IMG/VR virus record: IMGVR_UViG_3300028886_000084
Coordinates: 7,715 to 71,714 of that record
Source of the DNA: a virus
Taxonomy: Duplodnaviria > Caudoviricetes
DNA: 64,000 nt
Reading direction: 5' to 3' (one strand)
Of this stretch, positions 40,615-61,685 are shown piece by piece. A program made the position numbers and the translations under genes. Numbering within the stretch: the stretch's first letter is position 1; the number at the start of each line of letters is the position of its first letter. A model generated the notes under the pieces. It did no database searches, was not told where the DNA came from, and worked only from the letters and a program-made list of their open reading frames with translations.

Positions 40615-41499
40615 ATGACACTACAGAACTGCTACAGGACGAGTCCCATCAAAAAGAACTACTCGTATGTGGATGATACGGGGAGATTCCATGCGGGCAA
40701 TACTGCACAGGAAATGAATGAGTATGAGAAATTCGACAAGTATATGGCCGGGAAGAGGAAAGATACACGCGCAAACCTCAGAAAAGATACTGCGAACACC
40801 CTGGGCAGAACGATTGGAAAGATGATGCGCGGCAAGATCGAAGGAGCGGAGAACATGACGCTCTTTTCGACACCGAACGGGGACATCATAGCTTCATGGA
40901 ACGACCCTCAGACACCCGGACAGCGTACTTTCTCAATAGTGGATGTCGATGACAACAATGAGGTGTCGTTGATCCCCGCCTTCTCTCTTGCAGAAGATTC
41001 TTTCGCATCACCTCTGGCCAGTCTGAACAAGGATTGGGTCGACAAAAAAACACTTGGAAGTTTCAGTCCCAAATACGGAGCACTCGATCCAAAGGTATTC
41101 GCCGGGGTCAGAAGGATGTACGACGAATCTGACGGCGCATATACTCCCAGATCAGTCTATGCTTCAGCACTCGAAGCCCCGATATGGGATTTCACAAATA
41201 TCATACAGGTCCCTGGACGCGAGAATGCGCCCAGGATCGGCAGAATGCCCTCTACGACAAGGACCCGCAGAGACGCATGGGTGGTGAAAGGTGAAGATCC
41301 CATAGCGACTCCCGAGATGGAAGAGGAGTCCGAGGTCCAGTTGGAGAAGTTCAACGAATCCACTACCGACATGTTCGCCAGAATGCGTGCCGCAAGGATG
41401 AAGAAAAAAGATGTGGTCACGGATGACAGCGGAAGTGTCGATATCGTGAAATCATCCACACACTCACTCTTCAAAAGTCGTATGAAGGGAAGCAGATAA
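40615..41499 (+). CDS. hypothetical protein carrying two copies of the shared helix motif
   Basis: STTDMFARMR and STHSLFKSRM. Confidence 0.75.
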   Translation: MTLQNCYRTSPIKKNYSYVDDTGRFHAGNTAQEMNEYEKFDKYMAGKRKDTRANLRKDTANTLGRTIGKMMRGKIEGAENMTLFSTPNGDIIASWNDPQTPGQRTFSIVDVDDNNEVSLIPAFSLAEDSFASPLASLNKDWVDKKTLGSFSPKYGALDPKVFAGVRRMYDESDGAYTPRSVYASALEAPIWDFTNIIQVPGRENAPRIGRMPSTTRTRRDAWVVKGEDPIATPEMEEESEVQLEKFNESTTDMFARMRAARMKKKDVVTDDSGSVDIVKSSTHSLFKSRMKGSR

Positions 41500-41527
41500 T
41501 TATATATCATAATGCTATATTGGCATT

Positions 41528-41755
41528 ATGCCAAACCGTAAGAACCCAAACCCGCCGCTTGACTGGTGTCAGGCGTGCGGGAAATATTTCCCATATTCTA
41601 AGGACAGGAACGAATGTCCGGTCTGCGGCACTCAGGTCACACATGCCAGATGCTGCCGCTGCGGTAACGTCTGGGCACTTGTGACCAGAAGACCCAAACA
41701 ATGTCCTAGATGCAAGAACACCCGTTGGTATCAGATGAAGGGGGACAGATCATGA
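41528..41755 (+). CDS. double zinc-ribbon protein
   Basis: CQAC, CPVC, CCRC, CPRC. Confidence 0.7.
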   Translation: MPNRKNPNPPLDWCQACGKYFPYSKDRNECPVCGTQVTHARCCRCGNVWALVTRRPKQCPRCKNTRWYQMKGDRS

Positions 41756-42465
41756 AGGTCGACTCCGATGCATTGATCAATATCCTCAAAGAAGTGGATG
41801 CATTGAGCATCAGGGAGATCACGGCGATCCCTCTCGATGGAGGATTGGATTTTCATGCGATGGATCCTTCATGCACTTCGATCGTGAAGGCCGTTGCGAA
41901 ACCCGCAGCATTCCCGGACGGGTGTGACATGGAATCCGCCACATCCTTATCCATCCCGTTCCTGCTCGGAGCATTGCAGAAGGGCAAGATGTGCGACATG
42001 GAGGTCAAAGGCGGTCAGATCGTTGTAAAATACGACAAATCCAAAAGGACGCACCGTCTCATCGATCCGGAAGAGAAGGCAAGACCTGTTCCTTCGCTGG
42101 AAGGGTGGGACACCTGCGTTGTGATGAGCGATGACATCCTTACGACACTCAAACAGTCCTGTTTCACGGACATCAAATCCGATAACGGCGGCGTCATGGC
42201 CACGATGTTCGATGCGGGACTGAGATTCTCGATAAGATCGGATACAGAATCGGCAGAGATGGTCGTGGATGGGACTGCAGCTCTGGAAGAAGGCGAGCAG
42301 ACCGCTGTCTTTTCCACTGCTGTACTTCTTCCCATCGTCAAATCGCTGCCGAAAGATGTGATGATCACGATATCGATGAAAACGAACGCACCGATGGTAT
42401 TATCCATCGATGAAGATACATATTCGATGAAGATATTCATTGCACCGCTCATAATAGAGGATTGA
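41752..42465 (+). CDS. pcn: PCNA (archaeal DNA sliding clamp)
   Basis: FHAMDPS, two-domain length of about 237 aa, KIFIAPLI C-terminus. Confidence 0.85.
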   Translation: MKVDSDALINILKEVDALSIREITAIPLDGGLDFHAMDPSCTSIVKAVAKPAAFPDGCDMESATSLSIPFLLGALQKGKMCDMEVKGGQIVVKYDKSKRTHRLIDPEEKARPVPSLEGWDTCVVMSDDILTTLKQSCFTDIKSDNGGVMATMFDAGLRFSIRSDTESAEMVVDGTAALEEGEQTAVFSTAVLLPIVKSLPKDVMITISMKTNAPMVLSIDEDTYSMKIFIAPLIIED

Positions 42466-42469
42466 TCGC

Positions 42470-42739
42470 ATGGATGATGAGGAATTCAAGATCAAGGAGG
42501 AGAATAAGAACCCCCCTCCAAGGGTGATGCAGATCGTCGAGAGGGCGATGCTTGTCGATGATGCGATGATATCGATCGATTCGTTGATCGGTGCTCTGTT
42601 CCAATTGAAAGCATACATCAATACGGACAATTCATCCATTGAGAACATAAGTGAGTATCTGAACGATCTCACGGACACGATGGATGGCTTGATCAAGATG
42701 ATGGTCACCAAGAAACTGAAAAAGAAGGTAAAAAAATGA
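42470..42739 (+). CDS. hypothetical protein
   Basis: Coupled ORF. Confidence 0.65.
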   Translation: MDDEEFKIKEENKNPPPRVMQIVERAMLVDDAMISIDSLIGALFQLKAYINTDNSSIENISEYLNDLTDTMDGLIKMMVTKKLKKKVKK

Positions 42740-43053
42740 ACAACAGGAAGAAAATCGAAGCATTTTTGACCAATGACGATGGTCTGAACCTGCTCAAAGC
42801 GGTCGATCTGCTGAATCCCATCACCATTCCCGCTGATAAGATCCACACCATCAAGGATCTGAGCGTATATATGGGTCTTCCGCTGAAAGAAACGTGGATG
42901 CTTGTCGACGAAGCGTACGATGCGGGACTGGTGATGTTCTGCGGCGGTCTTCTGTCAAGGAAGAAGATCGATCTCACGGATCTGGGGGAGATGTTCTGTG
43001 AATGTTCCACTCCGGAACACATAAAAGAGGTGTTGAAAAATGTCAAAGATTGA
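42736..43053 (+). CDS. putative winged-helix protein
   Basis: IKDLSVYMGLPLKETWMLVDEAYDAGLV. Confidence 0.55.
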   Translation: MNNRKKIEAFLTNDDGLNLLKAVDLLNPITIPADKIHTIKDLSVYMGLPLKETWMLVDEAYDAGLVMFCGGLLSRKKIDLTDLGEMFCECSTPEHIKEVLKNVKD

Positions 43054-43279
43054 AGTCTTTTGTATAGACAACTGCCCGAACTGCAAGAAACTCTGCATGT
43101 TGCTGGACCGCGCGAACATAGAGTACGGCCATTTCAATCTGGACCAGTCCGCTGACGATCTCGCGGAAGCTGCGTTCAGGGGGATAATGAGTGAACCGTT
43201 CCCCGTGGTCTTCATCGATGAGGTGAAACTGGACCCTGCGACACCCGCAGAATATTTCCGTAAAATCAGAGGTGCCTGA
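43040..43279 (+). CDS. glutaredoxin (NrdH-like)
   Basis: CPNC active site, FPVVFID. Confidence 0.85.
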   Translation: MSKIEVFCIDNCPNCKKLCMLLDRANIEYGHFNLDQSADDLAEAAFRGIMSEPFPVVFIDEVKLDPATPAEYFRKIRGA

Positions 43280-43511
43280 GATGGCAAAATACAGGATAAG
43301 AATCTACAATACCCAAGGACTGGAGCTGATGAACCGCCCTTTCGAGGACTCGGCGATGTGGAACAAGTATTGGGACGACATACAGAAGAAAGAAAGCCTT
43401 CTAGGGTTCGCAGGACAAGGCCTGCTGATCCTGTCGAAGGAATATATGACCCAGGCAGGGAACTGGGAGTCGGAGGACAAATTCCCGGTAACGATCCAGG
43501 AGACGATATGA
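43272..43511 (+). CDS. hypothetical protein
   Basis: Coupled ORF. Confidence 0.6.
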   Translation: MPEMAKYRIRIYNTQGLELMNRPFEDSAMWNKYWDDIQKKESLLGFAGQGLLILSKEYMTQAGNWESEDKFPVTIQETI

Positions 43512-43912
43512 TGGCAGCATCGAAGAAAAAGAAGAAAATGATACAATTATGCTTCCTGACACTCGAGAATGTCGAGTCTGGGAGTGCGCTGAGAGCAAAT
43601 TCCATGAAGATCCTCTTCAGGGCGATGGCAGAGACCTGCGGCGGAGAGTTCAAGGAGGCGAAACATGCGATCACCGTGATGGCAGAGTGCGATATGGGGT
43701 CTGCGGAAGAAGCAGAGAGGGCATACAAGGAATGTGTGACCCGCGTCGATTATGCAGACTTCTATTCTGAACAGAAATTGATCGAAAAATCGCAGAAACT
43801 CGCCAAATTATGTGATGAATACAAATGCAGGATCACGCCCGCAGTCATCCTCAAGCAGGGCAACAAACTCGGGATGGAGTCTGAATTGTTCTGCTGGGAG
43901 TGGGAGCTATGA
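43508..43912 (+). CDS. hypothetical protein
   Basis: ATGA overlap at 43508. Confidence 0.65.
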   Translation: MMAASKKKKKMIQLCFLTLENVESGSALRANSMKILFRAMAETCGGEFKEAKHAITVMAECDMGSAEEAERAYKECVTRVDYADFYSEQKLIEKSQKLAKLCDEYKCRITPAVILKQGNKLGMESELFCWEWEL

Positions 43913-44358: not shown

Positions 44359-44408
44359 ACCATTTTTCACCATTCTTTTTTATAGACAGGTGACGATAAA
44401 GAGCATAT

Positions 44409-47039: not shown

Positions 47040-47092
47040 TGTTGTGTCATTTTCCGCAATCGGTTAAATAGTCCGCATACGATATATCACGC

Positions 47093-50000
47093 ATGGCCAA
47101 TTATACTGCAAGTGATATCACCACCGATGAGCAGGCAGCACTCGATCAGGTAAAGGAAGAGACCGAGGCAGCCGTCAAATACGACATAGCGGCGAAGAAC
47201 GCCAAGGACGAGGACACCAAGAAGGCGATGCTGGATAACAAATACGACGAGATCGAGCATGCAGGCCTTATGGGTGCAGTCGCGGCAGAGAAGGAGCCGA
47301 AGGATAAGAAAAGGATGACGGACGGCGTCAAGGAGCTCGAAGAGATCAAATCCGAGAGTACCGAGGCCGTCGGAGAGTCAGATTTCAGCAAATCCATCTC
47401 ACAGTGTATCAAAGAAAGAAGAAAATCACGTAAAAGCTCTATGGGTGCGGATTTTTCAGCTTTTGCAGATAAAACGGAAAAATTCGAAAGAAAGTTCAAA
47501 TCCGATGCACCGGGAAAAGAGCCAGTAACAGACCTCACAAGGATCCACCAGGGGTCTGCACCGAAAGCCCCTGTAGAGAACGTGTCAAAAAGACCCGAGG
47601 GTCTCCTTACGCCTGAATGGAGAAGACTTTCATACAACCCCCTTGGTTTCCTCATGCGTCTCGCGCTTGGAGCAAAACCCTATTCCCCTTCGGCAGTAAG
47701 TGCAGAGGATGAGGATCTTTTCGAGAATCAGAAATATATCAATCCGGACGAGCGCGAGGATGTTTCCGAAAAGAAGGATGAGGAAGAGAGAGTACGTGAT
47801 GCGAAAACCCCTGAGGATCTTCCGGAGGGGAAAGGAGCTGAGGTGAAGGCCCCCAGAACATTCAATTTCATGCCCAGTCCAGATCTGCTTCTCCGTCTTC
47901 TTGCAAATGAGTATGCAAAAGGAGAGGTTCCCGTCGCGGTCAAGGGGGATAAAGAGGGCAATAAAGCTGTGAAGGACTGGCGTTCCAAGCTCGGGTCTGC
48001 GCTGATGGATATCATAAGGGAAGTCCCAGATGATGAGTTCGAGGGCAGACTGCTCGGAGCTCAGAAATGGGCGGCACCGTATATGAACGCATACTCCATG
48101 GGAGATACCAAGACAAGGAGCGGAGAGTCGTATGATTGGGGCAGCCCTGCATTCAGCACATACGGGATGGACCCCAGGACGCTCGGTTCCAGATTCAATG
48201 ATGCCGTGAAGATGCTGGTCACCATCGATAAGCTGAAAGCGATGGCACCCGAAGGCCCGTTCAGCAATGCGTTGGACTACCTTAAGAGTGATTGGAAGAA
48301 ATACCTGAGAAAGATCTCCGGTGCACTCGGATGGGACATGGCCGCCAGGAACGAGAAGACCGACGATTACGACATGAGAGCACATGCCATAGATGACGGT
48401 GTCATCGATGAATTTGCCAAGCTGTTCGGCGATGAGAGGGCGATCATGTTGGAGAACGGTGGTCTTTCCGCAGGAGACCTCACAGTACAGGAGAGGAATT
48501 ATCTTGAACCGCTTATGAGGAAGAGACTCGGGAACAACGGTAACAACGAGTTCTGGACGAATCATGCGGATGGGTTCGATTTCGACGATATGATGTCGTA
48601 TTATAACTACGCCAGAGGTAAAGGGTACGAGGATTATGCCGCACCGACGGGCGACGACCGTATCGCGGAAGCACTCAAGGGAACTAAATTCAGTGACGAC
48701 GAGAATGTCAAGAAAACGCTTCTCAGCGCTATCGCAGAGAAAGACCCGGCGAAAGGGGAGGCAGTGATCAAAGCATTTGTCGATAACCTTAAGGGACCGG
48801 ATAGAATCCTTATGAAAAATCCGTTGATGAGGGCATACAAATCACTCATCGATGCGGGAAACGATAACAAAGTAGTGAATTACGGCGGTCCGAAGTACCA
48901 ATATGAGTATAACGAAGGGCCCATGAGGGAGCGCAATAAGAACAGTGCAGCATCTATCATCGACTATGCTCAGGTGAACGACATCAAGATTCCCGACCCG
49001 ATCCTGAAAAGACTTGAATTTACAAGGGAGACAGGCAACACCAAGGATCCCGATGATGAGTTCGCAGATTCCATATTCGACGATCCGTTCGTATCTTCCC
49101 TCAATAAAGAGCTTCTTTCCAACACATCGAACAAACCGGTCAGATATGCAGATGCGGATCTTGACGCATTGAAAAATAAAATGGAAAAAGAAGCGAGAAC
49201 AGCGATCGAGAACGCAGATGTACAGGACAATTCAGATTATACACCGTTAAAATCTGAAGACGTCATTTCAAAATATCAGGATTTCTACGATGCTGCAGGA
49301 AAAGACCGCAGTCTCATCGAAAGGATCTCAAAGAATCTCACTGGCAGTGATAAACTCGTAGACGATGCCAAGAGGAAACTTTCCAAGATTGCCGACGGAT
49401 TCTATAATGGTCTTCCTGCGTTCATGAATTCCGATATTGGAAGAAAAGCGATCATCGACACATATCGTGAGATGGCACGTAACGGAGAGGTAGAGCTCAA
49501 AGAGGATTTCGACGAGACGATGCCCCTCGACCAAGGCGTCAACAGACAGATCATCAACGATCTGATGTCCCAGGGACAGTTCTTCAACATGAGAGGACAG
49601 GGAGAAGAAAGTCTTATGAGATTCCTTGGGGACGACAACGTTGTGGAAAGTGAAACAGAAGAGACGTATGATGACGAGACGCCCAGGGGAATCACAGCAG
49701 AAAAACTTCTTGGGCAGGGGAGAGAATCTCCTAAAGTGCTCACCCCAGAGATGCTTGCCAACACAGGTATCGACGTAGATGAAGTGAACAGGATAATCAA
49801 TGATTATTATGATACAGAAGATTATCTCAAAGACGATCAGTATGCAGAATATGCAGAAGACCTGAAACAGGAAAGACAGAATCTGTATAATGACCTTCTC
49901 GGGATGACCGGGGAATTAGATAAGACTTCGATGTCCGACATCATCAATGCGATCAACACCGCAGAAAATAAAGGCGGCAGCGACGAACTCAAAGGAAAGA

Positions 50001-50893
50001 ACGCGAAGATCACAGGCGCAGAGAAGTTCAATGCACGTAAATCAAAGATCGCACAGGACATCCTGCAGAACGTGCCCCTGAGTGTTCTTTCGCATAATGT
50101 GCCGGCAGCATACAATCAGAAATATATCGACAAAGCCAAAGAAAAAGCCGATTTCGACCCCAAGTCTGGAAAGATGTCCATCTTTGACCGTATGATGAGG
50201 GTCTACGGCGGTCGTGATGAGTATGGCATGCCAGTCTGGAAGGCCCCAAATGCAGGTGATTTGGACACCATCGAGCAAAATGTCGCAAAATTCATCGAAC
50301 AGATCGGAACCATCCCTGAAAGGGTCGAGGTACCTGTCGCCAAACCCGGACCTGGTGCATCGGTCGATCAAATGAATGATTATGTGAAGAATGTCGGCAT
50401 TTCCGGGTCCGAGAGTAATGCATATCTCGATTCCGCATACCCGATATTGAATGATGTGTTCTTCAATGGGCTGGACATAGATAATTACATTTCCACCATG
50501 GATTCCGAAAACCCCGACCTTTCCCATGTCGGTGATGCGGACAAGTTCTTCGAGATGTTCAGCGGCCAGAAGGCCGCCGCGGACAAGAAAAAGGAGAAAC
50601 CGCAGTCAGAGATCGTTGAAGACCGTGGTCCCAAAGAGCCGCTCGAGAAAGAAGAGGAGAAGATCTCTGTGCCTATCAAGGCATCAGCGACCGAGTCCAA
50701 ATGCTCTCGTGTCAGACGCAGGACCGATGCCGACCCTGCACCGACCGATGTCGGCGGTCTGACCATGAAGGATCTTACGGAACCCACGATCAGAGATGAT
50801 GCCAACGGTTCAGAAGTCAAGCACATGGGTGACTCTGTGATCAAAAAGAGTACCTCAGAACTCATAAGGGAGAGGTTCAATAGGAGGAAGTGA
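47093..50893 (+). CDS. giant acidic protein (1266 aa), candidate internal virion protein
   Basis: TTAAATA at 47064; shared helix motif at both ends. Confidence 0.6.
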   Translation: MANYTASDITTDEQAALDQVKEETEAAVKYDIAAKNAKDEDTKKAMLDNKYDEIEHAGLMGAVAAEKEPKDKKRMTDGVKELEEIKSESTEAVGESDFSKSISQCIKERRKSRKSSMGADFSAFADKTEKFERKFKSDAPGKEPVTDLTRIHQGSAPKAPVENVSKRPEGLLTPEWRRLSYNPLGFLMRLALGAKPYSPSAVSAEDEDLFENQKYINPDEREDVSEKKDEEERVRDAKTPEDLPEGKGAEVKAPRTFNFMPSPDLLLRLLANEYAKGEVPVAVKGDKEGNKAVKDWRSKLGSALMDIIREVPDDEFEGRLLGAQKWAAPYMNAYSMGDTKTRSGESYDWGSPAFSTYGMDPRTLGSRFNDAVKMLVTIDKLKAMAPEGPFSNALDYLKSDWKKYLRKISGALGWDMAARNEKTDDYDMRAHAIDDGVIDEFAKLFGDERAIMLENGGLSAGDLTVQERNYLEPLMRKRLGNNGNNEFWTNHADGFDFDDMMSYYNYARGKGYEDYAAPTGDDRIAEALKGTKFSDDENVKKTLLSAIAEKDPAKGEAVIKAFVDNLKGPDRILMKNPLMRAYKSLIDAGNDNKVVNYGGPKYQYEYNEGPMRERNKNSAASIIDYAQVNDIKIPDPILKRLEFTRETGNTKDPDDEFADSIFDDPFVSSLNKELLSNTSNKPVRYADADLDALKNKMEKEARTAIENADVQDNSDYTPLKSEDVISKYQDFYDAAGKDRSLIERISKNLTGSDKLVDDAKRKLSKIADGFYNGLPAFMNSDIGRKAIIDTYREMARNGEVELKEDFDETMPLDQGVNRQIINDLMSQGQFFNMRGQGEESLMRFLGDDNVVESETEETYDDETPRGITAEKLLGQGRESPKVLTPEMLANTGIDVDEVNRIINDYYDTEDYLKDDQYAEYAEDLKQERQNLYNDLLGMTGELDKTSMSDIINAINTAENKGGSDELKGKNAKITGAEKFNARKSKIAQDILQNVPLSVLSHNVPAAYNQKYIDKAKEKADFDPKSGKMSIFDRMMRVYGGRDEYGMPVWKAPNAGDLDTIEQNVAKFIEQIGTIPERVEVPVAKPGPGASVDQMNDYVKNVGISGSESNAYLDSAYPILNDVFFNGLDIDNYISTMDSENPDLSHVGDADKFFEMFSGQKAAADKKKEKPQSEIVEDRGPKEPLEKEEEKISVPIKASATESKCSRVRRRTDADPAPTDVGGLTMKDLTEPTIRDDANGSEVKHMGDSVIKKSTSELIRERFNRRK

Positions 50894-50894
50894 A

Positions 50895-51374
50895 GTGGAT
50901 AAGGAAATTATGCAAATGATGTCCGAACCACCTACGGATGAAGAGATCGAAAATATGTATCAGCAGTATCTGAAGGAGGAGGCCGCAAAGCGCGGTATCA
51001 CTCCCGAAGAACTCGAGAAACAATTGGAGTCACAAACATCGATAAAGGAGAGTCATCCTATGACAAGAAGAGAAGAACTTGAGACAAAAGGTGTATCTCA
51101 GCTCATGGCTGAGAGGTTTGCAAAGGGCGTACCGACAGGTGCATATAGTAAACCTGTACCTGTTAGAAAGAAATCAGATTTGAAGAAAGAAGCGGCAATT
51201 GCAAAATTGCAAGATTTGATTGGAAAATGTTCCCGGTCACAAGGGGTCGATAGTCAAACAGCGGAGATAATGTTGTTTGGCGAACCCGTAAATTGGGAAG
51301 AACCAGAATTATATTCAAGTGTCTATGATGAACCCTCATCTGATGTACAAGCAGACACTACGGAGACTACATAA
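50895..51374 (+). CDS. hypothetical protein with shared helix motif
   Basis: GVSQLMAERF; in-frame paralogous repeat continues after the TAA. Confidence 0.65.
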   Translation: MDKEIMQMMSEPPTDEEIENMYQQYLKEEAAKRGITPEELEKQLESQTSIKESHPMTRREELETKGVSQLMAERFAKGVPTGAYSKPVPVRKKSDLKKEAAIAKLQDLIGKCSRSQGVDSQTAEIMLFGEPVNWEEPELYSSVYDEPSSDVQADTTETT

Positions 51375-51480
51375 AGGGGTGTGCCGAGAGGCGCATATTC
51401 AAACAATTCTTCTGAAAAGAAAGAATCAGGGGATTAAAATTCCCTAAACCCCTTATATCTTAAACCCCTTACCTTTTTCT

Positions 51481-51969
51481 ATGGTCAGAAGAGTGACAGA
51501 GGCCTTCGAGCAAGAGCTCGAGAAAAATATGCTGAAGAACATCAAGACGTACGCCCGTACCAGCGGCAATCCTCAGATCTTTGCCAGACGTGTGGATTAC
51601 GAAGTGGTCAACAAGGCGCGTAACGGTCAGTATTTCCGTGAGTGCGAAGCAAGACGGAGAATGCGCAACTGGGATGTCGAGATGGAAGACTATGAGAACA
51701 TGCGTGACAAGATGGAAGGTCTGAACCCCTATCTCGAGGTCGGCTATGACAGTTTTGCCAAGAAATACTTCGATTTCTTCGGCCATGGGTTCCCTACCCC
51801 CGCATGCCCCAAGGGCAGTCCGATGATGGACAACGAGTATAAGCCGTGGGTGTGTCCTCATTGTCACACCAAACACAGCGGCCCCGCATCCGGTCTCCCG
51901 ATGCGCTGCAGGTGCGGTCAATTGACCCCTATGGGCGAATATACACAGGCAAAGGCGTATAGGCGTTAA
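51481..51969 (+). CDS. zinc-finger protein
   Basis: WVCPHCH...CRCG; pyrimidine-rich duplicated TAAACCCCTTA upstream. Confidence 0.65.
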   Translation: MVRRVTEAFEQELEKNMLKNIKTYARTSGNPQIFARRVDYEVVNKARNGQYFRECEARRRMRNWDVEMEDYENMRDKMEGLNPYLEVGYDSFAKKYFDFFGHGFPTPACPKGSPMMDNEYKPWVCPHCHTKHSGPASGLPMRCRCGQLTPMGEYTQAKAYRR

Positions 51970-51994
51970 ATACTTCAACGGTGTTTAGAGATAT

Positions 51995-52405
51995 ATGTAT
52001 ACTCCCGATCCTGAACGCAAACTGAACCCCACCAAGGCCGATCAGGATAAAGCCGACAGAGCACGTCGTACCTCCGGTCTTCAAGATGTCATAAGATTGA
52101 TCATGGAATCTCCTTTGAGACAAGGCGAGATCGTCAGACTATCACAGGAGAACCCCATCCCCCTCAAGGAACTGAAGGGTGCGAATGTAGAGGCACAGGT
52201 GGCCGTGGTCCTCGCACAGGTCAAAGAGGCCGTCAGCGGCAATGTCAAATCCGCCGAATGGTTATGCAAATATGCAGGTTGGGAACCGGTCAAGGAGAGT
52301 AAGGTCTCGGTCGAGTCCGTGACATTCATCGATGATATCCCTCGCCCTGCCCTTGAACCCGTGATCACTGCCGTTGCAGAATCCGTGAAGGAAGACGATG
52401 CCTGA
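51995..52405 (+). CDS. terS: terminase small subunit
   Basis: AVSGNVKSAEWL, C-terminal TFIDDIP, immediately upstream of TerL. Confidence 0.7.
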   Translation: MYTPDPERKLNPTKADQDKADRARRTSGLQDVIRLIMESPLRQGEIVRLSQENPIPLKELKGANVEAQVAVVLAQVKEAVSGNVKSAEWLCKYAGWEPVKESKVSVESVTFIDDIPRPALEPVITAVAESVKEDDA

Positions 52406-54239
52406 ATTCCGTCTGTCAGAGATAATCTCCCCCGCATACTATCCTGCGTGGACGACTGATAAACAGAATCTGGTACTCGGAGGGTCAAAAGGATCGGGAA
52501 AATCATATTTCGTGGCCCTCAAGATCATCTACAACATCATGAGGAACCCATATCTCAACGTACTCGTGGTAAGAAAGGTCGCAGACACCATCAGGGACTC
52601 CTGTTATGCAGACCTCATCAAGATCATCAATACCTATTTCAACCCGGAGGATTGGTCCCACACATACAGTCCGCTGGAGATAAGGTACAAGAAGACCGAC
52701 CAGAAGATCCTGTTCAGGGGACTGGACAATGCCTACAAGTTAGCATCGATCACCGCAGACAACGGCGGTTATCTGGCATGGGTGTGGTTCGAAGAGGCCT
52801 TCGACATCACGGATTACAATGATATCCTGAAGATCCAGGGTTCTATCCGTGCGATCCCCCCAAAGACCGGGTTGTCGAAGACCTTCATCTATTCCTTCAA
52901 CCCGTGGGGTCCCGACCACTGGCTGAAGACCGAATATTTCGATAAACAGCGTGATGACACGCTGGCAATGATAACCACGTATCTGGACAACCCCGGGATC
53001 ACGGATGAGGACCGTCAATGGTACGAGAATCTGAAAGAGATCAACCCCCGTGCCGCCGAGGTCATCTGTTATGGTCATTGGGGCCGTGCCGAAGGTCTGA
53101 TCTACGACAACTGGGTCGAGAAGGAGTTCGATTATCAGGAGATTCTTCAGAGACCGGGTACGAAGGCCATCTATGGTCTTGACTTCGGTTACAAGACATC
53201 GTACAATGCCTTCATAGCGGCCGTTGCCGACATCCAGAAGCACGAGATGTATGTCTTTGACGAGATATACAGCAAAGGGATGACCAATCTGGACATTGCG
53301 AAGGTGATAACCCAGGCGGGATACGCCGGGGAGAGGATCGTCGCCGATTCCGCCGAACCGAAATCCATCGATGAACTCAAATCGGGGAGAGGGTTGGTGG
53401 AAGAGGTCGTGGACCGTGAGACGGGGGAGGTCAGGTATGACAAATACCGTCTGCCCAACATCATGCCTGCGGTCAAAGGTCCCGACTCTGTCAGGAACGG
53501 TATAGCCAGGTTGCAGGAATTCACGATATACATCCATCCCAAGTGCAAGAACTTCAAGTCCGAGATCCAATTGTATGCATACAAGGTGGATAAGGATGGC
53601 AAGCTCACGGGAGAGCCTGAGAAGGAGTACGACCACGCCTGTCTGGTAGGTTCGACACTGATCATGACCGAGAACGGACACATTCCGTTAAAGGATGTAA
53701 AGGTCGGTATGAAGGTGTTGTCCAGCCAGGGGTGGAAAGAGGTCACAGATTGGGCACTTACGAAGAAAGATGCGGAGATATACCGTTTGGAGACCATTGA
53801 CGGTCATTTTGTAGAGGGTACTGCGGACCATAGAGTTGTGACCACACAAGGTGTAAAAGAAATGAAGGACGTATCGTACGGTGATGAATTGATCACGGAG
53901 AAAGATACTATTCGTGTACAGCGTGTCTCAGGTCCGATACGCAGAGAGGACGTATACAACATAACGGTTGAGACTGCCCATGATTATTTCGCCAATGGGA
54001 TATTGGTGAAGAATTGCGATGCCCTCCGCTATTGTACCTCGGCATTGTATCAGATGGGACACGCAAAGGTCGTGGAGGCAAAAGGCATAGAAGCGACCAA
54101 CGTCATCACCGGTTCTCTCGCCAAGGAGGAGGCGAAGGATGAGGAAAAACCGAAGAAGAGACACAGCCGTGTGGTGTCGACACACGAGGCTCCTGACCCT
54201 GATGCGGTCACTCCCCCCTCGTTCTTCTGCTTCTACTGA
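52398..54239 (+). CDS. terL: terminase large subunit (PBSX-like) containing an intein
   Basis: GGSKGSGKS, WFEEA, SFNP, GLDFG, ADSAEPK, DH(A)-intein-CDALRY. Confidence 0.95.
   Translation: MPEFRLSEIISPAYYPAWTTDKQNLVLGGSKGSGKSYFVALKIIYNIMRNPYLNVLVVRKVADTIRDSCYADLIKIINTYFNPEDWSHTYSPLEIRYKKTDQKILFRGLDNAYKLASITADNGGYLAWVWFEEAFDITDYNDILKIQGSIRAIPPKTGLSKTFIYSFNPWGPDHWLKTEYFDKQRDDTLAMITTYLDNPGITDEDRQWYENLKEINPRAAEVICYGHWGRAEGLIYDNWVEKEFDYQEILQRPGTKAIYGLDFGYKTSYNAFIAAVADIQKHEMYVFDEIYSKGMTNLDIAKVITQAGYAGERIVADSAEPKSIDELKSGRGLVEEVVDRETGEVRYDKYRLPNIMPAVKGPDSVRNGIARLQEFTIYIHPKCKNFKSEIQLYAYKVDKDGKLTGEPEKEYDHACLVGSTLIMTENGHIPLKDVKVGMKVLSSQGWKEVTDWALTKKDAEIYRLETIDGHFVEGTADHRVVTTQGVKEMKDVSYGDELITEKDTIRVQRVSGPIRREDVYNITVETAHDYFANGILVKNCDALRYCTSALYQMGHAKVVEAKGIEATNVITGSLAKEEAKDEEKPKKRHSRVVSTHEAPDPDAVTPPSFFCFY
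53640..54014 (+). mobile_element. mini-intein (125 aa, no homing endonuclease)
   Basis: CLVGST...EGTADH...VYNITVETAHDYFANGILVKN/C splicing motifs. Confidence 0.9.
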
Positions 54240-54283
54240 CGTTAGAAATAAAATATTTAAATGTTATATACAGGTTGATAGCC

Positions 54284-56044
54284 ATGGCCTCTTCAATATT
54301 CTCGGTCCCGCCCATAGTCAACAGGACGGTACCGTTCCAACGTTCAGCACCCACTCCTATCGACATAATGTCAGAGATGGTGATGGGTACGCCCATCGAT
54401 CCGAATGTCAAACCCAAGAAACAAAGGACCTTTGAGGTCGGCGGGGGAGAGCGTCCCGAGGACATATACTATCGTGTCACTCGGCAGAACAATTGGTGGG
54501 CGCCTTATACGGATATGTACAAGATGTTCCAGGAGAACTCACTTGCATTCACCCTTGCACTGAGGTCTGCAGTGGAGCTCACACGTTTTGACATCATCCT
54601 CAAACCAAGATTCGCACGTAAGTGTGACATGTGCGGATACGAGTCGCAGTCGATAATCGATGAATGCCCCGACTGCGGTGCAGGACTCGAACACCTGCAT
54701 AAACCCGACCCTAAACAGAAGAGACTTCTGATGAAGAAGAACGGTAAGACCTGGATCGAAGAGGCCAATAATTCCGGGCAGACACTGAAAGAGGTCATCA
54801 AATCATTCGCGTTCACACAATATCAACTGAACCAAGCATATTTTGTCTGCAATACACGCACCACCTATGATGCTGAGACCGGGGAGAAAGCTCTGACGAT
54901 CCCGGTGGAATTCCTTTCGATCGATCCCATCAGGGTCCAGCAGTTGTTCGATGACAGTGGTGAAGTGGGCAAGACCTACGGATTCACCATGGATAACAGG
55001 AACAAGATGCTGAATCTCAACAGCGACAAACAGGCAGACATCGACGAGATCATGAATCTCACCGATGAAGGCAAGCAGATCTATGCCGCGGCATATAAGG
55101 TCGGTTCCAATGTCGGTGCGTCTGGTAAGTATTGGCTGTATACCGCACAAGAGGTCTATCAGGCACATTGGTTCAAACCTGCCCTGACATACGGCGTCCC
55201 GATCTGGTACAGCATCTGGGATGACCTGAGAGCATGGAACGCTCTCGAGAAGCACTTCTTCAAACGTTACAACTACGGTGTCGTCCGTAAACTAATGTTC
55301 ATCCCCGGTGTTCAGGATGATGATATCGATGAGGTCACCAAAGGTATCACCGACACCCTCGCCAAGAATGACAACTCCATCCCCATCGTCTGCATGCCCC
55401 CCGTGATGGGTCAGACCGCGGAAATGAGGCCATACGCACTCGACCTCGGTACAGAAGATGTCATGGCTGCGTTGGCTGCAAAGGACAACATCATGAACCG
55501 TGTCTGTGCATTCGTCGGCGTGCCCAACCTGTTCGCCGGTGATGTCGAGACCAGCGGAGGGATGAACAACGAGAGCCAGCAGATCGTGGCATTCGACAGG
55601 TTTCTTATGGACAAGCTGTCATATATCGACGATCTTCTCGAAAAGGGATTCAAGGTCTGGTTCCCCGGTCTGAAGGACTGGGACATCGTCATGGACCGCC
55701 CGACTAAATCCGAGACTGACGCTAAGAAGAGGATGGCCAAGATCGATGAGATGCTCAAGATGAAACAGGCAGGCTACCTCAGCGAATGGCTTGACGGAGA
55801 GTTCCACTACTCCAGATTCCCCTTCGACCAGCAGCAGATGATCAAGCAGGCCGCCATGCAGGAGCAGCAGATGCAGCAGCAGATGATGATGCAGCAGATG
55901 CAGATGATGCAGCCCCAGGAAGGCGACGGCGACCACGGCGGAGGCGAAGGCCCCCCTGAAAGAGGCAGTGCAAGGCGTGAGGACCCCGAGATCGATGAGG
56001 CCAAGAACGAGGTCGAAGAGACGATGAGCGAGGCCGACCTATGA
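54284..56044 (+). CDS. portal protein with Zn-ribbon insertion and Gln/Met-rich tail
   Basis: Follows TerL; YGVPIW, RVCAFVGVPNLF..D..TSGGMNNESQQI. Confidence 0.85.
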   Translation: MASSIFSVPPIVNRTVPFQRSAPTPIDIMSEMVMGTPIDPNVKPKKQRTFEVGGGERPEDIYYRVTRQNNWWAPYTDMYKMFQENSLAFTLALRSAVELTRFDIILKPRFARKCDMCGYESQSIIDECPDCGAGLEHLHKPDPKQKRLLMKKNGKTWIEEANNSGQTLKEVIKSFAFTQYQLNQAYFVCNTRTTYDAETGEKALTIPVEFLSIDPIRVQQLFDDSGEVGKTYGFTMDNRNKMLNLNSDKQADIDEIMNLTDEGKQIYAAAYKVGSNVGASGKYWLYTAQEVYQAHWFKPALTYGVPIWYSIWDDLRAWNALEKHFFKRYNYGVVRKLMFIPGVQDDDIDEVTKGITDTLAKNDNSIPIVCMPPVMGQTAEMRPYALDLGTEDVMAALAAKDNIMNRVCAFVGVPNLFAGDVETSGGMNNESQQIVAFDRFLMDKLSYIDDLLEKGFKVWFPGLKDWDIVMDRPTKSETDAKKRMAKIDEMLKMKQAGYLSEWLDGEFHYSRFPFDQQQMIKQAAMQEQQMQQQMMMQQMQMMQPQEGDGDHGGGEGPPERGSARREDPEIDEAKNEVEETMSEADL

Positions 56045-56658: not shown

Positions 56659-57131
56659 AGAAGATCGACGTCGAGATATGGAAGCGTCTCCTTGATGCCA
56701 AGGACGGGCTGATCTATGCAGAGTCGTTGTGCTGCAGTCTCGGAATGACACGGCGTCAGCTTCTGTCGAGGGTATCCGGGCTGAACCAGCCTTTGGTCAA
56801 GAGGGCGGGAGATGCTAAGGAGGTGTACTTCATCATCGGAGGGGACATGGCACAGCGTGCAGAGGCCACCGTGGATGTCCTGTCCACATTCTTCAAGTGC
56901 AGCCCGGACAGGATCCGCAGTGTTGCGGACTGCATCTCCGTGGCAGGATATATGACACTGGATGAGATCTCTCTGCTGACTTCGGTCCCGGTCAGGGAGG
57001 TCGCCTACATATTATATGTGATGCCGAACATCACTATGCGTAAAGGATCGAAGAAGAACCACTATGTGAGGTGTGAAGATGTATCAGTCGATTTGGGAAT
57101 TGCCAACGATCGTGCTCAACTCGCTCAATGA
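56655..57131 (+). CDS. putative double winged-helix DNA-binding protein
   Basis: LCCSLGMTRRQL and TLDEISLLTSVPVREVAYIL helix-turn-helix-like segments. Confidence 0.55.
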   Translation: MKKIDVEIWKRLLDAKDGLIYAESLCCSLGMTRRQLLSRVSGLNQPLVKRAGDAKEVYFIIGGDMAQRAEATVDVLSTFFKCSPDRIRSVADCISVAGYMTLDEISLLTSVPVREVAYILYVMPNITMRKGSKKNHYVRCEDVSVDLGIANDRAQLAQ

Positions 57132-58869
57132 AGAGGACGCAACGAAGTGGATGACCGCTTATAATGAGTGCAACCCTCGGAACAATGATGAGGCGAGAAA
57201 GGCGAAGCGTAAGGCGTGGCACTCCGTAGCAAAAGCTCCCTCCTCATTCAGTTTTGAGATCATCGCATCCACCGACACCATCGATCGTGCTAAGGACATC
57301 ATCGATCTGGAGAGCACAAAGAAGCACATGGATTCGTTCATCGACTACGGCGGGAATATCCAGAACGATCACCACAACTACACCGTCGGTACGATATGGG
57401 ACTGGAAGCCCTGTAAGGTCAAGGACGACAAGAACAGGGAAGTGGACGGTATCATCGCATACGGCAATCTCTTCGGAGGAGATCTGGTTTATGATAATAT
57501 CAGAAAATCCTTCGTCAACGGCATGAACAAGCTCTCCATCGCCGGGGAAGCTGCACCGGGCAAATACCAGTGCGATGAGCGTGGGTGCTACACCAGAAGG
57601 AATGTCCAGCAGCTGCTCGAGATCTCATTGTGTGTGGAGCCGATGAACAAGTACTGCACACTTGTGGACTACAACAAGGACGCAACGATCAAGAAGTCCG
57701 CTTCAGCGTTCAACCTCAGGATCCAGGAGTACACACTCCATAAGGACAGTGCGATGTGCCCGATAATGTCACTCAAGAAGTCACTGACAGCCATCGGTTA
57801 TGATGCCCACGCAAGAGAGGACGGGGTACACATCCCCATGTCCTTCCTTGAGTTCATCGATGACGAGGACAACTTCAGGAAACATGGGCTCAATATCGAC
57901 TATAATGGTAAATTAGGGGAAGCCGTGGTGACGCGGGGGTTTACCAGAGCCAATAAGGCAGAGAAGATGTTCGGTCAGGCCGCTACCGATGTGATGAAAG
58001 AGAACCAGCAAGCCAAGATTCAAGAACAGATGGACATCCCAGGGATGGATAACGATGAGCCATATGAATGGATTACAAGCGGAATATTGGGGGAGTGGCA
58101 AAGGGGCGGAAAAATCGCCCCTGAAAAAATAACAAATCCTGATTTAAGCAGAAATATGAGAAGCGGGAGCCCCAGTTTTTATTATGTCAATCAATTAGGG
58201 ATGCCCAAGAATACAGTATATGCGTCGCGTAGAAATTCACACGGTGGTTCCCATTGGCTTGAATCGTGGAAAATGATGGATGGGCTCGATCTTTCAGACA
58301 AGGACGTGGGCCAGTTTGCCAACGGAGTATCATTCGATCTAAATCCTAACGCACGTCATCTCGTAGTTAATAATAAACAGGAATGGCAGGATTTGTTGAA
58401 AAAATATCCATTGCTGGTCAAGAACCCAGAGGACCCTGACGGGGAACTGACGATGGACAAGGACAAGTCAGTTCTGCCTAATTGGGATGCTATCGCTAAA
58501 GATTATGACTCGATGTATATGAGCCCCCAACTTATCATGTATCTTAAAGCCATCCGTAATAAGAATCATGCTGGACCAGAGATAAACTTATCTAGGGAGA
58601 TCAGACGTCAACCGTTAAATGTCGATGGTGAGGATGCTTTGATAGCCAATATGGATGTTGAAGGTCCTGACCATATGTTCATATTCAATCCGAACGCAAT
58701 CCTTAGACAGAAACCGTATAGATACAACGAATCCGCCAAACCAACAAAAATGGATTATGAAGAAAAGAATAGAAAATACCCATCGTACTCCCAACAGGCA
58801 TTCAAGAATCAGGCACAGGGTAAAATACAATCTGAAACAAGGACAATACCAAAGGAGTGGATGCGTTGA
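57079..58869 (+). CDS. ChaB-like domain + prohead protease + unknown C-terminal domain
   Basis: N-terminal ELP..VL...W..AY...AW.SV; ASTDTIDRAKD, NDHH, LSIAG, EISLC..PMN protease motifs. Confidence 0.75.
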   Translation: MYQSIWELPTIVLNSLNEEDATKWMTAYNECNPRNNDEARKAKRKAWHSVAKAPSSFSFEIIASTDTIDRAKDIIDLESTKKHMDSFIDYGGNIQNDHHNYTVGTIWDWKPCKVKDDKNREVDGIIAYGNLFGGDLVYDNIRKSFVNGMNKLSIAGEAAPGKYQCDERGCYTRRNVQQLLEISLCVEPMNKYCTLVDYNKDATIKKSASAFNLRIQEYTLHKDSAMCPIMSLKKSLTAIGYDAHAREDGVHIPMSFLEFIDDEDNFRKHGLNIDYNGKLGEAVVTRGFTRANKAEKMFGQAATDVMKENQQAKIQEQMDIPGMDNDEPYEWITSGILGEWQRGGKIAPEKITNPDLSRNMRSGSPSFYYVNQLGMPKNTVYASRRNSHGGSHWLESWKMMDGLDLSDKDVGQFANGVSFDLNPNARHLVVNNKQEWQDLLKKYPLLVKNPEDPDGELTMDKDKSVLPNWDAIAKDYDSMYMSPQLIMYLKAIRNKNHAGPEINLSREIRRQPLNVDGEDALIANMDVEGPDHMFIFNPNAILRQKPYRYNESAKPTKMDYEEKNRKYPSYSQQAFKNQAQGKIQSETRTIPKEWMR

Positions 58870-59684
58870 TCCCTTCAACACGTTCGATGATGAGGGCCGC
58901 ACGCAGGAATGACAGATTGGTGGACATGACATTCGCCAGATCATTGGATGAGCCTGAGATGGAGTTCATCCACGCCATCAGACCCACCGAGACCGAGATC
59001 ATCGAGAAGATGAGGGCGGACCCGACCTTCTCGGGTTTCGACCCCGAACTCTACAATTCCAAGGGGGTCCTGTACGCTGCGCCTTTCAAGGATGAGAGGA
59101 CATTGTCATTGTACCACGATTATGATGGCAAGGCCTATACGGACCCTGAAGGGATCATGCGTGGTTTCATGTTCAGATGGCCGAAGGCCGACATCAACAT
59201 GGCGGACAATGAAGGGGATGTCAGAGCGATCATGGACCGTATGATGACAGGTATGCCTCTCAACAAGAGAGGAGAACTGCGCGGTGACGAACTCCTTCTG
59301 AGATTGAAGCCCGAAGACATCGAAGGATTCGGCAAGATGCTGAGGCCTTTTGCCTATGATACCAAGAACAGGAAGTTCATCACAGGCGGTCCGTTCCTGA
59401 AGTCGGCGCTCGATGATTTTAAATTCACATTCAATGGCCCCGAGCAGCCCAAGACGGATGATTATCCCATCGAAGATGAGATCAAGGACCTGCAGAGAGA
59501 GACCGAAACGATGGTCAGAAAGCATGGCAACAAGTTCTACATGAGACCCATCATCGAGAAACACAATCGCAGTTACGGTTATCTCACCACACCTGAAGAA
59601 CGCAGGGACGCCCTCAAGAAGTTCCTTACGGACATGAGAGCCGCACATGACGATGCCGTTTACAAGTGGAAAAGCAGGCGTTAA
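58857..59684 (+). CDS. hypothetical protein with shared helix motif
   Basis: PSTRSMMRAARR at the N-terminus; FARSL. Confidence 0.7.
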   Translation: MDALIPSTRSMMRAARRNDRLVDMTFARSLDEPEMEFIHAIRPTETEIIEKMRADPTFSGFDPELYNSKGVLYAAPFKDERTLSLYHDYDGKAYTDPEGIMRGFMFRWPKADINMADNEGDVRAIMDRMMTGMPLNKRGELRGDELLLRLKPEDIEGFGKMLRPFAYDTKNRKFITGGPFLKSALDDFKFTFNGPEQPKTDDYPIEDEIKDLQRETETMVRKHGNKFYMRPIIEKHNRSYGYLTTPEERRDALKKFLTDMRAAHDDAVYKWKSRR

Positions 59685-59707
59685 AACCTCTTCCCTTTTT
59701 TATACTC
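59684..59707 (+). promoter_or_regulatory. terminator/late-promoter motif AAACCTCTTCCCTTTTTTATACTC (copy 2)
   Basis: Near-identical to 30753..30776; upstream of the scaffold-MCP operon. Confidence 0.65.
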
Positions 59708-59738
59708 ATATACCTATAACACAAATAAGGTAATTACC

Positions 59739-61685
59739 ATGGATACCGAAAAGCAGTGGGATGCATTCGAAAAGAATGACTCCCAGTTTAGGAAATCAGA
59801 ATCTGTTCAGCAGGATATCCAGCAGATTTTGGATACTGTCACGCAGATCAAGACCGATGTTGACCAGCTCAAGGGAGAGAACACAGAGGCGGCCGGTCCC
59901 GTCGACGCTGAGCCTGCACTCTCAGCTCCCGAAGACAACCAACCCCCGGCAGAGCCCCCTATGGATATGAGCGGTGCAGCGCCCGGCGGCGAGACGCCCC
60001 AGGAGCCCATGGGGGATCTCATGGCACAGCCTGAGGACGGTGCAGCTACACCCGTTCCCGCACAGGAACCTGCTCCCGAGATGCCTGCAGAGGAACCCGT
60101 TCCCCCGCTCTTCGAGGAAGGTGACGAGGAGGATGTGTTTGGTGGTAAGCAGTCCGATGAGGACAAGCTTCTCCAGACCGCAATGGAAGTGGACGACCCT
60201 GAACTCAAACAGCAGATCATCGCGCTCGTCTATCAGTCACTTGAAGCGAAGAAGGCTCCTGTCGCTCCTCCGATGGAAGAGCAACTGCCCCCCGGAGCAG
60301 AGGAGATACTGGCAGCAGCCATGGACGCCAACGGTGACGGCGTGATCTCCGAGGACGAGATCGAACCGATGATGAGGTCCGCTGACTCCGAGAGCGTGCA
60401 GTGCGACGCCAACCCCGCAGAGGGTATCAAGGCTGAAGCAATCGCCCAGTCCGATGATGAAAAGAAGGACGATGACGAAGAGTCCGACGACGACAAGAAG
60501 GAAGAGCCTGGTGTGAACGATGGCCTTCCCAGCAAGGAGGAGGACAAGGACAGCACCGAGGATCTCCCTGAGGTCACCGAAGTGAAGATCGAGACGGAGG
60601 ACGTCGACGAGCCTGAAGAACAGACCCCCGAGGAGACATCCGACGAGAAGGAGGACGCCATCGACAGCATCATAGACTCCATCCTCGAAGACGCGAAGGA
60701 GAGGATCAAGGAACAGGTCGTCGAAGCCGTCGATGGAATCGACGCGGAGCACTCCCCGTTCCTCATGTCCACGGCAGAGATGATGAAGTCCAGGCGCACA
60801 GGCGGAAGCCACAGGTCGTTCAAGACCGGACCGATCAAGAAGAGCATCGAGTGGCCCGAGTCATTCGAAGACGTGAGCCCCGAGGACAAGTGCAGATACT
60901 TCGCCAAGTCCTTCACTCAGCTTCCTGCGGCCATCCAGGACGATGTCGTCACGCTCATGGACACCAAGCTCGGAAGCGATGTGACATCCAGTATCTTCAA
61001 GTCGGAGGGTGTCGACCTCGATTCGATCTACGAACCCGTTGCAAAATCGAGACAGGCACCCGAGCAGACATACACGGCACAGTGTGCCGACGATGTCGAG
61101 GGTACGGCATCAGAGGACAACGGCGGGATGACCGAGAGCGAACAGAAATCCGAATCCGTAAAAGAAGGACTCATGGATAAACTCACCGCACCCGTTGACA
61201 ACTACAAGAAGAAGAAACTTGAGAACAAGTATCAGTCAGCAGGCCCCGATCCGAAGAAGAGAGTGGCAAGTGCAGAAGGAGGATGGGACATGATCCCCGA
61301 AGGAATGTCGGATAAAGACGTGAAGACACACATGAAGCTCGACTCCAAAGGCAAAGCACCTCAATACGGATTCAAGGACAGAACTGTATCTTCATACGGC
61401 GGTCACGGACTGAAGCAGACATCCCAGGCAGAATACGATAAGGCAACGTCATCCGTTCAGAATTCCGATGATACTGAGACCCTTGAGGAATGCAAGAAAT
61501 CAGCAGACATCGGAATGCACATCCCCACGGTCAATGAGATGATGTCCTTCAGGAAGTCACACACTTCAATGTACACAGCGATCAGCAGGGAGGCTGCAGA
61601 GCCTCACGGACTGGTCGACATGGGTACTGAACAGACCATCCCCTCGGTGAAGGATATGTTCGCCAAGAGGTTCGGAAAGAGCTAA
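59739..61685 (+). CDS. capsid scaffolding protein (acidic, low complexity)
   Basis: Between protease region and MCP; very D/E/P-rich; basic C-terminal helix. Confidence 0.65.
   Translation: MDTEKQWDAFEKNDSQFRKSESVQQDIQQILDTVTQIKTDVDQLKGENTEAAGPVDAEPALSAPEDNQPPAEPPMDMSGAAPGGETPQEPMGDLMAQPEDGAATPVPAQEPAPEMPAEEPVPPLFEEGDEEDVFGGKQSDEDKLLQTAMEVDDPELKQQIIALVYQSLEAKKAPVAPPMEEQLPPGAEEILAAAMDANGDGVISEDEIEPMMRSADSESVQCDANPAEGIKAEAIAQSDDEKKDDDEESDDDKKEEPGVNDGLPSKEEDKDSTEDLPEVTEVKIETEDVDEPEEQTPEETSDEKEDAIDSIIDSILEDAKERIKEQVVEAVDGIDAEHSPFLMSTAEMMKSRRTGGSHRSFKTGPIKKSIEWPESFEDVSPEDKCRYFAKSFTQLPAAIQDDVVTLMDTKLGSDVTSSIFKSEGVDLDSIYEPVAKSRQAPEQTYTAQCADDVEGTASEDNGGMTESEQKSESVKEGLMDKLTAPVDNYKKKKLENKYQSAGPDPKKRVASAEGGWDMIPEGMSDKDVKTHMKLDSKGKAPQYGFKDRTVSSYGGHGLKQTSQAEYDKATSSVQNSDDTETLEECKKSADIGMHIPTVNEMMSFRKSHTSMYTAISREAAEPHGLVDMGTEQTIPSVKDMFAKRFGKS

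Follow-up and report, generated by a model that had tools for sequence, protein, structure and literature searches.

The window analysed here is a 64,000-nucleotide stretch corresponding to bases 7715–71714 of the linear 71.7-kb IMG/VR virus record IMGVR_UViG_3300028886_000084. It carries the head gene module of what is probably a tailed, methanogen-infecting virus, and our subject is a ten-residue motif that is common to the C-terminus of the scaffold candidate of this virus and to otherwise unrelated proteins, as an original prediction made on the same DNA had claimed. The product of the capsid gene (alignment A3) is 33% identical to a protein of Caudoviricetes sp. vir335 described as “major head protein, HK97-like fold”. 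Vir335 is assigned to Methanomassiliicoccales, and the order of head module genes is identical in the two viruses. Thus, the window falls in the group of Methanomassiliicoccales-type archaeal tailed viruses, and the archaeal assignment made in the prediction is borne out.

From 38 kb on, the plus strand contains replication genes, a gene coding for a 294-amino-acid (aa) protein, a PCNA-like gene together with small genes, and a gene of an 876-aa protein. These are followed by the gene of a 1266-aa protein (the giant protein below), a gene of a 159-aa protein, a zinc-ribbon gene, and the genes of the small terminase, the large terminase, which contains an intein, and the portal. The rest of the block is formed by two small head genes, the gene of a 598-aa prohead protease, an open reading frame (ORF) referred to below as the “275-aa” ORF, the gene of a 648-aa acidic protein, which is the scaffold candidate, and the gene of the capsid protein.

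All nine peptides listed in the prediction were found in plus-strand reading frames, at most 1 nt away from the positions given there. Two copies, STTDMFARMR (copy 1, 41359–41388) and STHSLFKSRM (copy 2, 41455–41484), are located near the C-terminus of the 294-aa protein. The giant protein contains SISQCIKERR (copy 3, 47393–47422) at aa 101–110 and STSELIRERF (copy 4, 50849–50878) at aa 1253–1262, four residues before its C-terminus. GVSQLMAERF (copy 5, 51090–51119) is present in the 159-aa protein, while STRSMMRAARR (copy 6, 58875–58907), an imperfect copy in which the Arg is displaced by one residue, belongs to the “275-aa” ORF. The remaining three copies are in the scaffold candidate: STAEMMKSRR (copy 7, 60768–60797) at aa 344–353, TVNEMMSFRK (copy 8, 61527–61556) at aa 597–606 and SVKDMFAKRF (copy 9, 61644–61673) at aa 636–645, three residues before the C-terminus. 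As can be seen, copies are often placed at extreme protein termini, and they lie there in a disordered context, just as had been noticed originally. The strict form of the pattern that was put forward with these peptides fits three of the nine; the other six can only be called motif-like.

A profile scan and a six-frame scan of the whole record confined the copies to the plus-strand block between 41.3 and 61.7 kb. In the six-frame scan, real reading frames gave no additional copy: the tail and early genes had none, and neither did the 7.7 kb by which the record extends beyond the window. In both scans neither the major capsid protein nor the prohead protease yielded a copy. The sequence AVNEMFEEKT in a 205-aa protein does not have the Arg and was not accepted as a copy.

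The motif can be described by the consensus S-[TVI]-x-[EDQ]-[ML]-[MIF]-x-x-R-[FMR], which is usually followed by basic residues. Its conserved features are a Ser/Thr cap followed by hydrophobic residues at positions 2, 5 and 6, with Glu/Asp/Gln at position 4, Arg at position 9 and Phe/Met/Arg at position 10. Such an arrangement matches one side of an amphipathic helix that has an S-x-x-E capping box and about 2.5 turns; it has helical periodicity (positions 2, 5, 6 and 9/10) and does not fit a cleavage pattern of 3–4 residues. In AlphaFold2 (AF2) models, each of the three scaffold copies (predicted helices 345–353, 598–607 and 637–645) and the giant protein copy at about aa 100 (predicted helix 102–113) appear, at low confidence, as isolated short helices that start directly after the Ser/Thr. 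The residue preceding the motif is variable (K, S, E, P or M), and the non-scaffold copies are mostly preceded by K or R, as in KK-S or K-S. The codons used for Ser and Arg vary from copy to copy. Since synonymous codons differ in this way, a DNA-level signal was rejected, and the signal resides in the protein.

Recurrence of the motif in the window and in related loci

When the motif is judged inside the window alone, it is not settled whether it exceeds chance. An enrichment test based on the pattern itself is circular. The motif did not stand out in blind k-mer and expectation-maximisation searches of the window. In BLOSUM k-mer neighbour counts and single-linkage clusters, CxxC zinc-finger genes and Trp/Cys-rich words prevailed. 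A home-made expectation-maximisation search ranked an S-x-x-E-M-M-like set second among the plus-strand proteins, with a likelihood no better than that of shuffled sets. A scan of all protein termini with one scaffold tail as the seed gave P=0.31. When only the three scaffold copies were used to build a profile, an excess of matches in other proteins was retrieved, with ranks 3–9 reaching or exceeding the maximum of 500 shuffles, and all these matches were located in the plus-strand block. In a leave-one-protein-out procedure, the scores were reached by 0–6 of 17,163 background 10-mers, a count that is biased by the choice of copies made in the prediction.

The equal likelihood of sets discovered blindly in shuffled proteins, the result of the terminus scan, the limited fit to the strict pattern and the existence of three copies in proteins without homologues would all be expected if the copies had no function in common and had been picked by eye as chance instances of a pattern that frequently starts helices (S-x-x-E plus hydrophobic and basic residues), their conservation among homologues being ordinary. 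What bears on this explanation is the comparison with related genomes. Homologues of the portal protein (89–39% identity) led to eleven related loci; a direct IMG/VR search with the portal protein as a query produced no match.

In an alignment of 14 scaffold homologues (A1), the three copies are conserved stretches within a largely variable, gap-rich protein. Copy 7 is part of a conserved segment PF[LM][LM]-ST.EMMKS[RF]R, copy 8 is part of HIP[TS]V[NS]EMM.[FI][KR]K, and the sequence IPSVK[DE]MFAKRFG in the region of copy 9 is nearly invariant in 12 of the 14 proteins. Both copies of the giant protein are likewise kept in six homologues, copy 3 as KKS[IT]S[QES][CL][IVM] and copy 4 as S[TI]SEL[IM][KR][ES]R[FMI]. 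A profile scan of the relatives revealed 7, 5, 3, 1 and 2 matches per locus, compared to about 0.1 expected, with the values of 3–7 belonging to the three closest relatives. Among these matches is an extended segment, S.SQ[LM][MI]AE[RK], in proteins encoded directly after the giant gene.

The ends of the scaffold and the giant protein were compared in a test defined a priori, in which the scaffold C-terminal 10-mer was matched to the 22 C-terminal residues of the giant protein and the null came from the C-termini of 226 other proteins. A match was found in each of five genomes (empirical P from <0.004 to 0.013), and for the window pair, which involves copy 4, P was <0.004. The pairing also holds in a subclade (L006 and L010, portal 49% identical) whose giant proteins otherwise cannot be aligned. 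This subclade has its own tail variant, [ST]IDD[LI]I..R[QM], at the C-termini of both the scaffold and the giant protein. The pairs of scaffold and giant tails are TIDDLIASRQ with GIDALMYLRQ and SIDDIIAGRM with DIDSLIFGRQ; the scaffold variants occupy the position of copy 9, and an internal scaffold copy is present too. Scaffold tails of the window clade did not match the giant tails of L006 and L010 (scores of 0–2, compared to 12–21 within the clade). Since the variant is found on both the scaffold and the giant protein, and since tails do not match across clades, these sequences suggest that the copies of the motif follow a common partner.

The agreement of scaffold and giant tails in five genomes, the retention of the tail by giant proteins whose middle part has been replaced (see below) and the number of matches per related locus together make an origin by chance very unlikely in our opinion. 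Comparison across relatives therefore supports a motif that is real, even though blind discovery within the window failed to single it out.

The giant protein and its EncFtn-like head

The giant protein (47093–50893, plus strand) starts with an EncFtn-like head and copy 3 of the motif; a hypervariable middle, about 1100 aa long, leads to a conserved C-terminal module of some 70 aa that ends in copy 4. An alignment of six giant homologues (A5) showed that three parts are kept: residues 1–81, the KKS[IT]S copy and a stretch of 70 C-terminal residues with the motif at its end. The ends are nearly invariant, while the middle, encoded in the window by nucleotides 47453–50671, is not homologous between lineages, even close relatives: by BLAST, the giant protein of locus L004 shares with that of the window only aa 1–119 and aa 1185–1265. 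The tail containing copy 4 is kept in homologues with an unrelated middle as well. Such a pattern of kept ends and a swapped middle suggests, at the level of sequence, a payload that either evolves very fast or is exchanged as a module. Family searches with the middle part revealed no family match, and the ESM Atlas gave no usable match.

The head is an EncFtn-like half-ferritin domain (aa 1–81; 47093–47335, plus strand). When a four-sequence profile of this domain was compared to the PDB, it matched the P. furiosus EncFtn-encapsulin fusion 2e0z (E=5.5e-11) and the EncFtn domain 5n5e (E=1.1e-10), and also 3k6c and EncC. Residues E23, Y30, E53 and H56 are invariant and align, with identical spacing, with the ferroxidase residues E32, Y39, E62 and H65 of R. 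rubrum EncFtn. A Foldseek search with the AF2 model returned top matches that were almost all encapsulated ferritins or ferritin-like proteins (rmsd about 2 Å over 70 residues), with E-values that were weak, as expected for a helical hairpin. The single-sequence Pfam score for EncFtn (PF22277) was 22.8 bits, under the cutoff of 27. Judging from the profile and the model, aa 1–81 is an EncFtn domain, with all four residues of the ferroxidase centre at canonical spacing. Domains similar to rubrerythrin or EncFtn are likewise found at the start of the giant proteins of loci L007, L010 and L013. None of the papers covered by a literature search described a virus head protein with an EncFtn domain.

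The EncFtn domain and copy 3 are separated by about 20 residues. In encapsulins, EncFtn docks inside an HK97-fold shell via a short terminal peptide (PMC5012862). By analogy, the EncFtn head followed by a motif copy has the layout of encapsulin cargo, which fits a reading of the motif as a cargo address, and the build of the giant protein, with its conserved ends and swapped middle, fits the same reading. As in encapsulin cargo, an EncFtn with the Glu/Tyr/Glu-x-x-His centre (2e0z, 5n5e) precedes a short peptide, here a candidate docking peptide. In contrast to encapsulin cargo, no peptide of the Gly-Ser-Leu-Lys type is present, and the EncFtn domain heads a protein of 1266 aa. The shell gene is also different: here it is a viral capsid gene found near the portal, terminase, protease and scaffold genes, whereas the encapsulin shell has no portal. 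It is conceivable, though we consider it doubtful, that the virus uses its capsid like an encapsulin, with a ferroxidase-competent EncFtn on a fast-evolving giant payload being loaded into the HK97-fold head by the docking helix of the scaffold. If this were the case, viral scaffold tails and the cargo-loading peptides of encapsulins would be linked by this virus as a living intermediate, and injected proteins of uncultured archaeal viruses could be found by a rule readable from sequence.

A candidate docking helix for the procapsid interior

The gene of the 648-aa protein (59739–61685, plus strand) is located between the genes of the prohead protease and the major capsid protein (61755–63179, plus strand), as in vir335. 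The protein has conserved N-terminal helices, a long, acidic, Pro-rich, disordered middle and conserved C-terminal 60 aa, and its AF2 model is mostly disordered. From its position and composition, we infer that it is the scaffold. The sequence IPSVKDMFAKRFG at its extreme C-terminus is nearly invariant and constitutes a conserved helix segment (helix 637–645, predicted with low confidence) with hydrophobic and basic residues. In HK97-type phages, scaffolds bind the capsid protein with their extreme C-terminus, and by analogy it is this position that the motif occupies here.

On balance, we lean towards the interpretation that the motif is a shared docking or loading helix for the procapsid interior, with both binding and packaging being putative. 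All carriers of the motif would bind one common site inside the assembling procapsid. The receptor would most likely be the inner face or the N-arm of the HK97-fold capsid protein, or possibly the scaffold core; the capsid protein appears the likeliest because the extreme C-terminus of the scaffold is the motif. With three copies, one of them at the extreme C-terminus, the scaffold could bridge capsid subunits, while a variable set of other carriers, with the tag either terminal or internal, would be co-assembled into the head as internal proteins. The proposed cargo includes the EncFtn-headed giant protein, the small proteins encoded directly after it and, perhaps, the 294-aa and 272/275-aa proteins. 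Speculatively, an S78-type protease might afterwards clip the tag and free the cargo. Such clipping is conceivable because many cargo copies are preceded by Lys or Arg, and we regard it as possible but unsupported. Binding, encapsidation, release and host delivery of the carriers are what we infer from the above, and injection into the host would be conjecture only. A precedent for large virion proteins of archaeal viruses that act against host defence comes from non-tailed viruses (bioRxiv 10.64898/2026.04.28.721311). A docking or loading tag is also what the original prediction had proposed. Of this proposal, a real motif that is conserved in homologues and predicted to be helical is upheld, whereas for three of the nine copies homologues are lacking.

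The prohead protease (57073–58869, plus strand; phrog_9427) has a ChaB-like N-terminus, a weak S78-type core and a variable C-terminal extension. ChaB matches were obtained in 10 of 12 relatives, and matches to S78 and S78_2 were weak. Only the N-terminal 260–345 aa or so can be aligned with the relatives, and a protease profile compared to the PDB found no relative by sequence. No homologue of the C-terminal extension (about 300 aa) is present in the relatives, whose proteases are 338–603 aa long. A frameshift fusion of the protease with the next ORF was considered and rejected, as there is no slippery site.

The presence of this gene in the head module raises the alternative that the motif is mainly a recognition site of an S78-type prohead protease, the carriers being cut at or next to the motif, which would then play no docking role. 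Multiple copies of a motif, carried by scaffolds and internal proteins, typify proteolytic processing such as that of T4 and phiKZ-type phages, and the Lys or Arg found before most non-scaffold copies recalls the cut between Lys and Ser in the HK97 capsid protein. On the other hand, the conserved pattern extends over ten residues with helical periodicity, and the residue just before it is not conserved. The capsid protein and the protease carry no copy, while the scaffold does. Cuts at three sites only would leave scaffold fragments of 343 and 253 residues, and trimming 3–13 residues from an extreme terminus would be purposeless unless the tail had held the protein somewhere. We therefore consider a mere cleavage site unlikely.

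Another alternative keeps the binding but dispenses with delivery: the carriers would be transient parts of a core or scaffold that bind each other or the capsid protein and exit before or during DNA packaging. The scaffold and a 635-aa protein of locus L007 have 3–4 copies each, which suits the building of a multivalent lattice; the carriers are acidic, disordered and without enzyme domains, and scaffolds of the P22 type are known to leave intact. However, a giant protein whose 1100-residue middle is rapidly exchanged resembles a host-facing payload more than a structural core, a disposable scaffold would not be expected to include an EncFtn whose metal site is intact, and a 140-kDa protein could not easily exit a closed shell uncut. 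A purely structural role for all carriers thus appears improbable to us.

Besides the outcome of the blind searches and of the terminus scan within the window, several observations weigh against the motif being a docking or loading helix. More distant relatives (L007, L009 and L011–L013) end their scaffolds in another conserved tail, DPxDVIxxDLxxYNLF, and this tail was not found on other proteins in the sampled regions of these relatives; since it is not shared, tag sharing is not a family-wide rule. In close homologues, the motif windows are at the 62nd–93rd percentile of conservation, which is not extreme, and the conservation seen there may partly reflect a short divergence time. The AF2 helix predictions are of low confidence (pLDDT about 45–58). 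Proteases of the HK97 type carry a targeting tail of their own; the window protease, unlike them, has no copy of the motif. The gene of the 294-aa protein sits among replication genes rather than head genes. For the 294-aa and “275-aa” proteins, no homologues were found in a viral contig search or in the related loci; three of the copies lie in these proteins. Finally, the motif carriers show no homology to any known internal or ejection protein; Pfam searches with the candidate cargo proteins at E-values up to 1 returned nothing credible.

The principle of a shared address has precedents. In phage T4, the internal proteins IPI, IPII and IPIII and the Alt protein are diverse and fast-evolving, and a conserved peptide of about 10 residues, the capsid targeting sequence (CTS), directs them into the prohead (PMC3012670). 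Similarly, the motif described here is the same short peptide on otherwise unrelated proteins (nine copies in five proteins), with the cargo swapped and the tag kept. The T4 CTS is N-terminal, ends in an L/I-x-E site cut by the gp21 protease and addresses the scaffold core. In our case, the tag can be placed C-terminally, internally or N-terminally, lacks L/I-x-E and is shared with the C-terminus of the scaffold; the protease is S78-like, and the virus belongs to an archaeal group.

The scaffolding protein (SP) of phage 80alpha and CpmB of SaPI1 are unrelated proteins that have in common a C-terminal helix and a RIIK motif that binds the capsid protein (PMC5644958). There, too, unrelated proteins end in the same segment of hydrophobic and basic residues, which is about 16 residues long and recognises a shared site on a capsid protein of the HK97 fold. 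In contrast to the carriers discussed here, CpmB is a size-redirecting scaffold of a hijacker and not a cargo of the virus itself; RIIK-type tails have no sequence similarity to our motif, and capsid binding by the latter is putative. In phage P1, the 250-kDa antirestriction protein DarB is packed into the head via a terminal signal of at most 30 residues (PMC9024508). DarB resembles the giant protein in being very large and encoded near portal and protease genes, the antirestriction role being that of DarB. The Dar signal is N-terminal and has no consensus among Dar proteins, whereas here one recognisable motif is found on several carriers and on the scaffold. The novelty suggested in the original prediction should thus be limited: the literature searched contained no shared tag of an archaeal tailed virus, but the principle itself is known from the T4 CTS, P1 DarB, 80alpha SP/CpmB and encapsulin peptides.

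The idea that virus scaffolds and encapsulin cargo represent two uses of one interior docking principle has been discussed (PMC13669383). Since a bona fide EncFtn domain sits on a tagged protein, the virus would, if the docking interpretation is true, provide a concrete case of this principle. A tag that works as proposed would also make it simple to list, from sequence, the internal and possibly host-directed proteins of a whole group of uncultured gut and rumen methanogen viruses, and foreign proteins could be loaded into an archaeal virus capsid with it as a portable peptide. If the motif were only a protease site, it would still be the first cleavage rule for this clade of proteases.

Other carriers and neighbouring genes

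The 159-aa protein (50895–51374, plus strand), which contains copy 5, has in common with a 304-aa protein of locus L004 the segment S.SQLMAER[FY].(1-2)GVPTGAY, and related segments are present in a 152-aa protein of L003 and in the 635-aa protein of L007. The gene following the giant gene in L003 is interrupted by an N run (a scaffold gap in the assembly at about 6540–6650), so the N-terminal position of the motif copy STSDLMAMKM in that locus is unreliable.

The gene of the 294-aa protein (40615–41499, plus strand), the carrier of copies 1 and 2, is located between a VapE-like and a PCNA-like gene. The best start of the “275-aa” ORF (58866–59684, plus strand; 272 or 275 aa) is TTG at 58866, with which the product begins M-IPSTRSMMRAARR and copy 6 occupies residues 4–13. 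Copy 6 is translated only if the start is either this TTG or GTG at 58857. The TTG is preceded by AGGAGTG plus 6 nt, a ribosome-binding arrangement that is usual for the plus-strand genes.

Directly upstream of the small terminase gene, nucleotides 51481–51969 encode a conserved protein (about 160 aa) that has a zinc ribbon at its C-terminus; it is present in all relatives sampled at this position, with 28–80% identity. The large terminase (52398–54239) contains a Hint/intein insert at about aa 413–560. In relatives, the insert is absent from L003 (483 aa) and larger in L005 (806 aa) and L009 (856 aa). The portal protein (54275–56044) has a rubredoxin-like CxxC...CxxC zinc-ribbon insert at aa 116–139.

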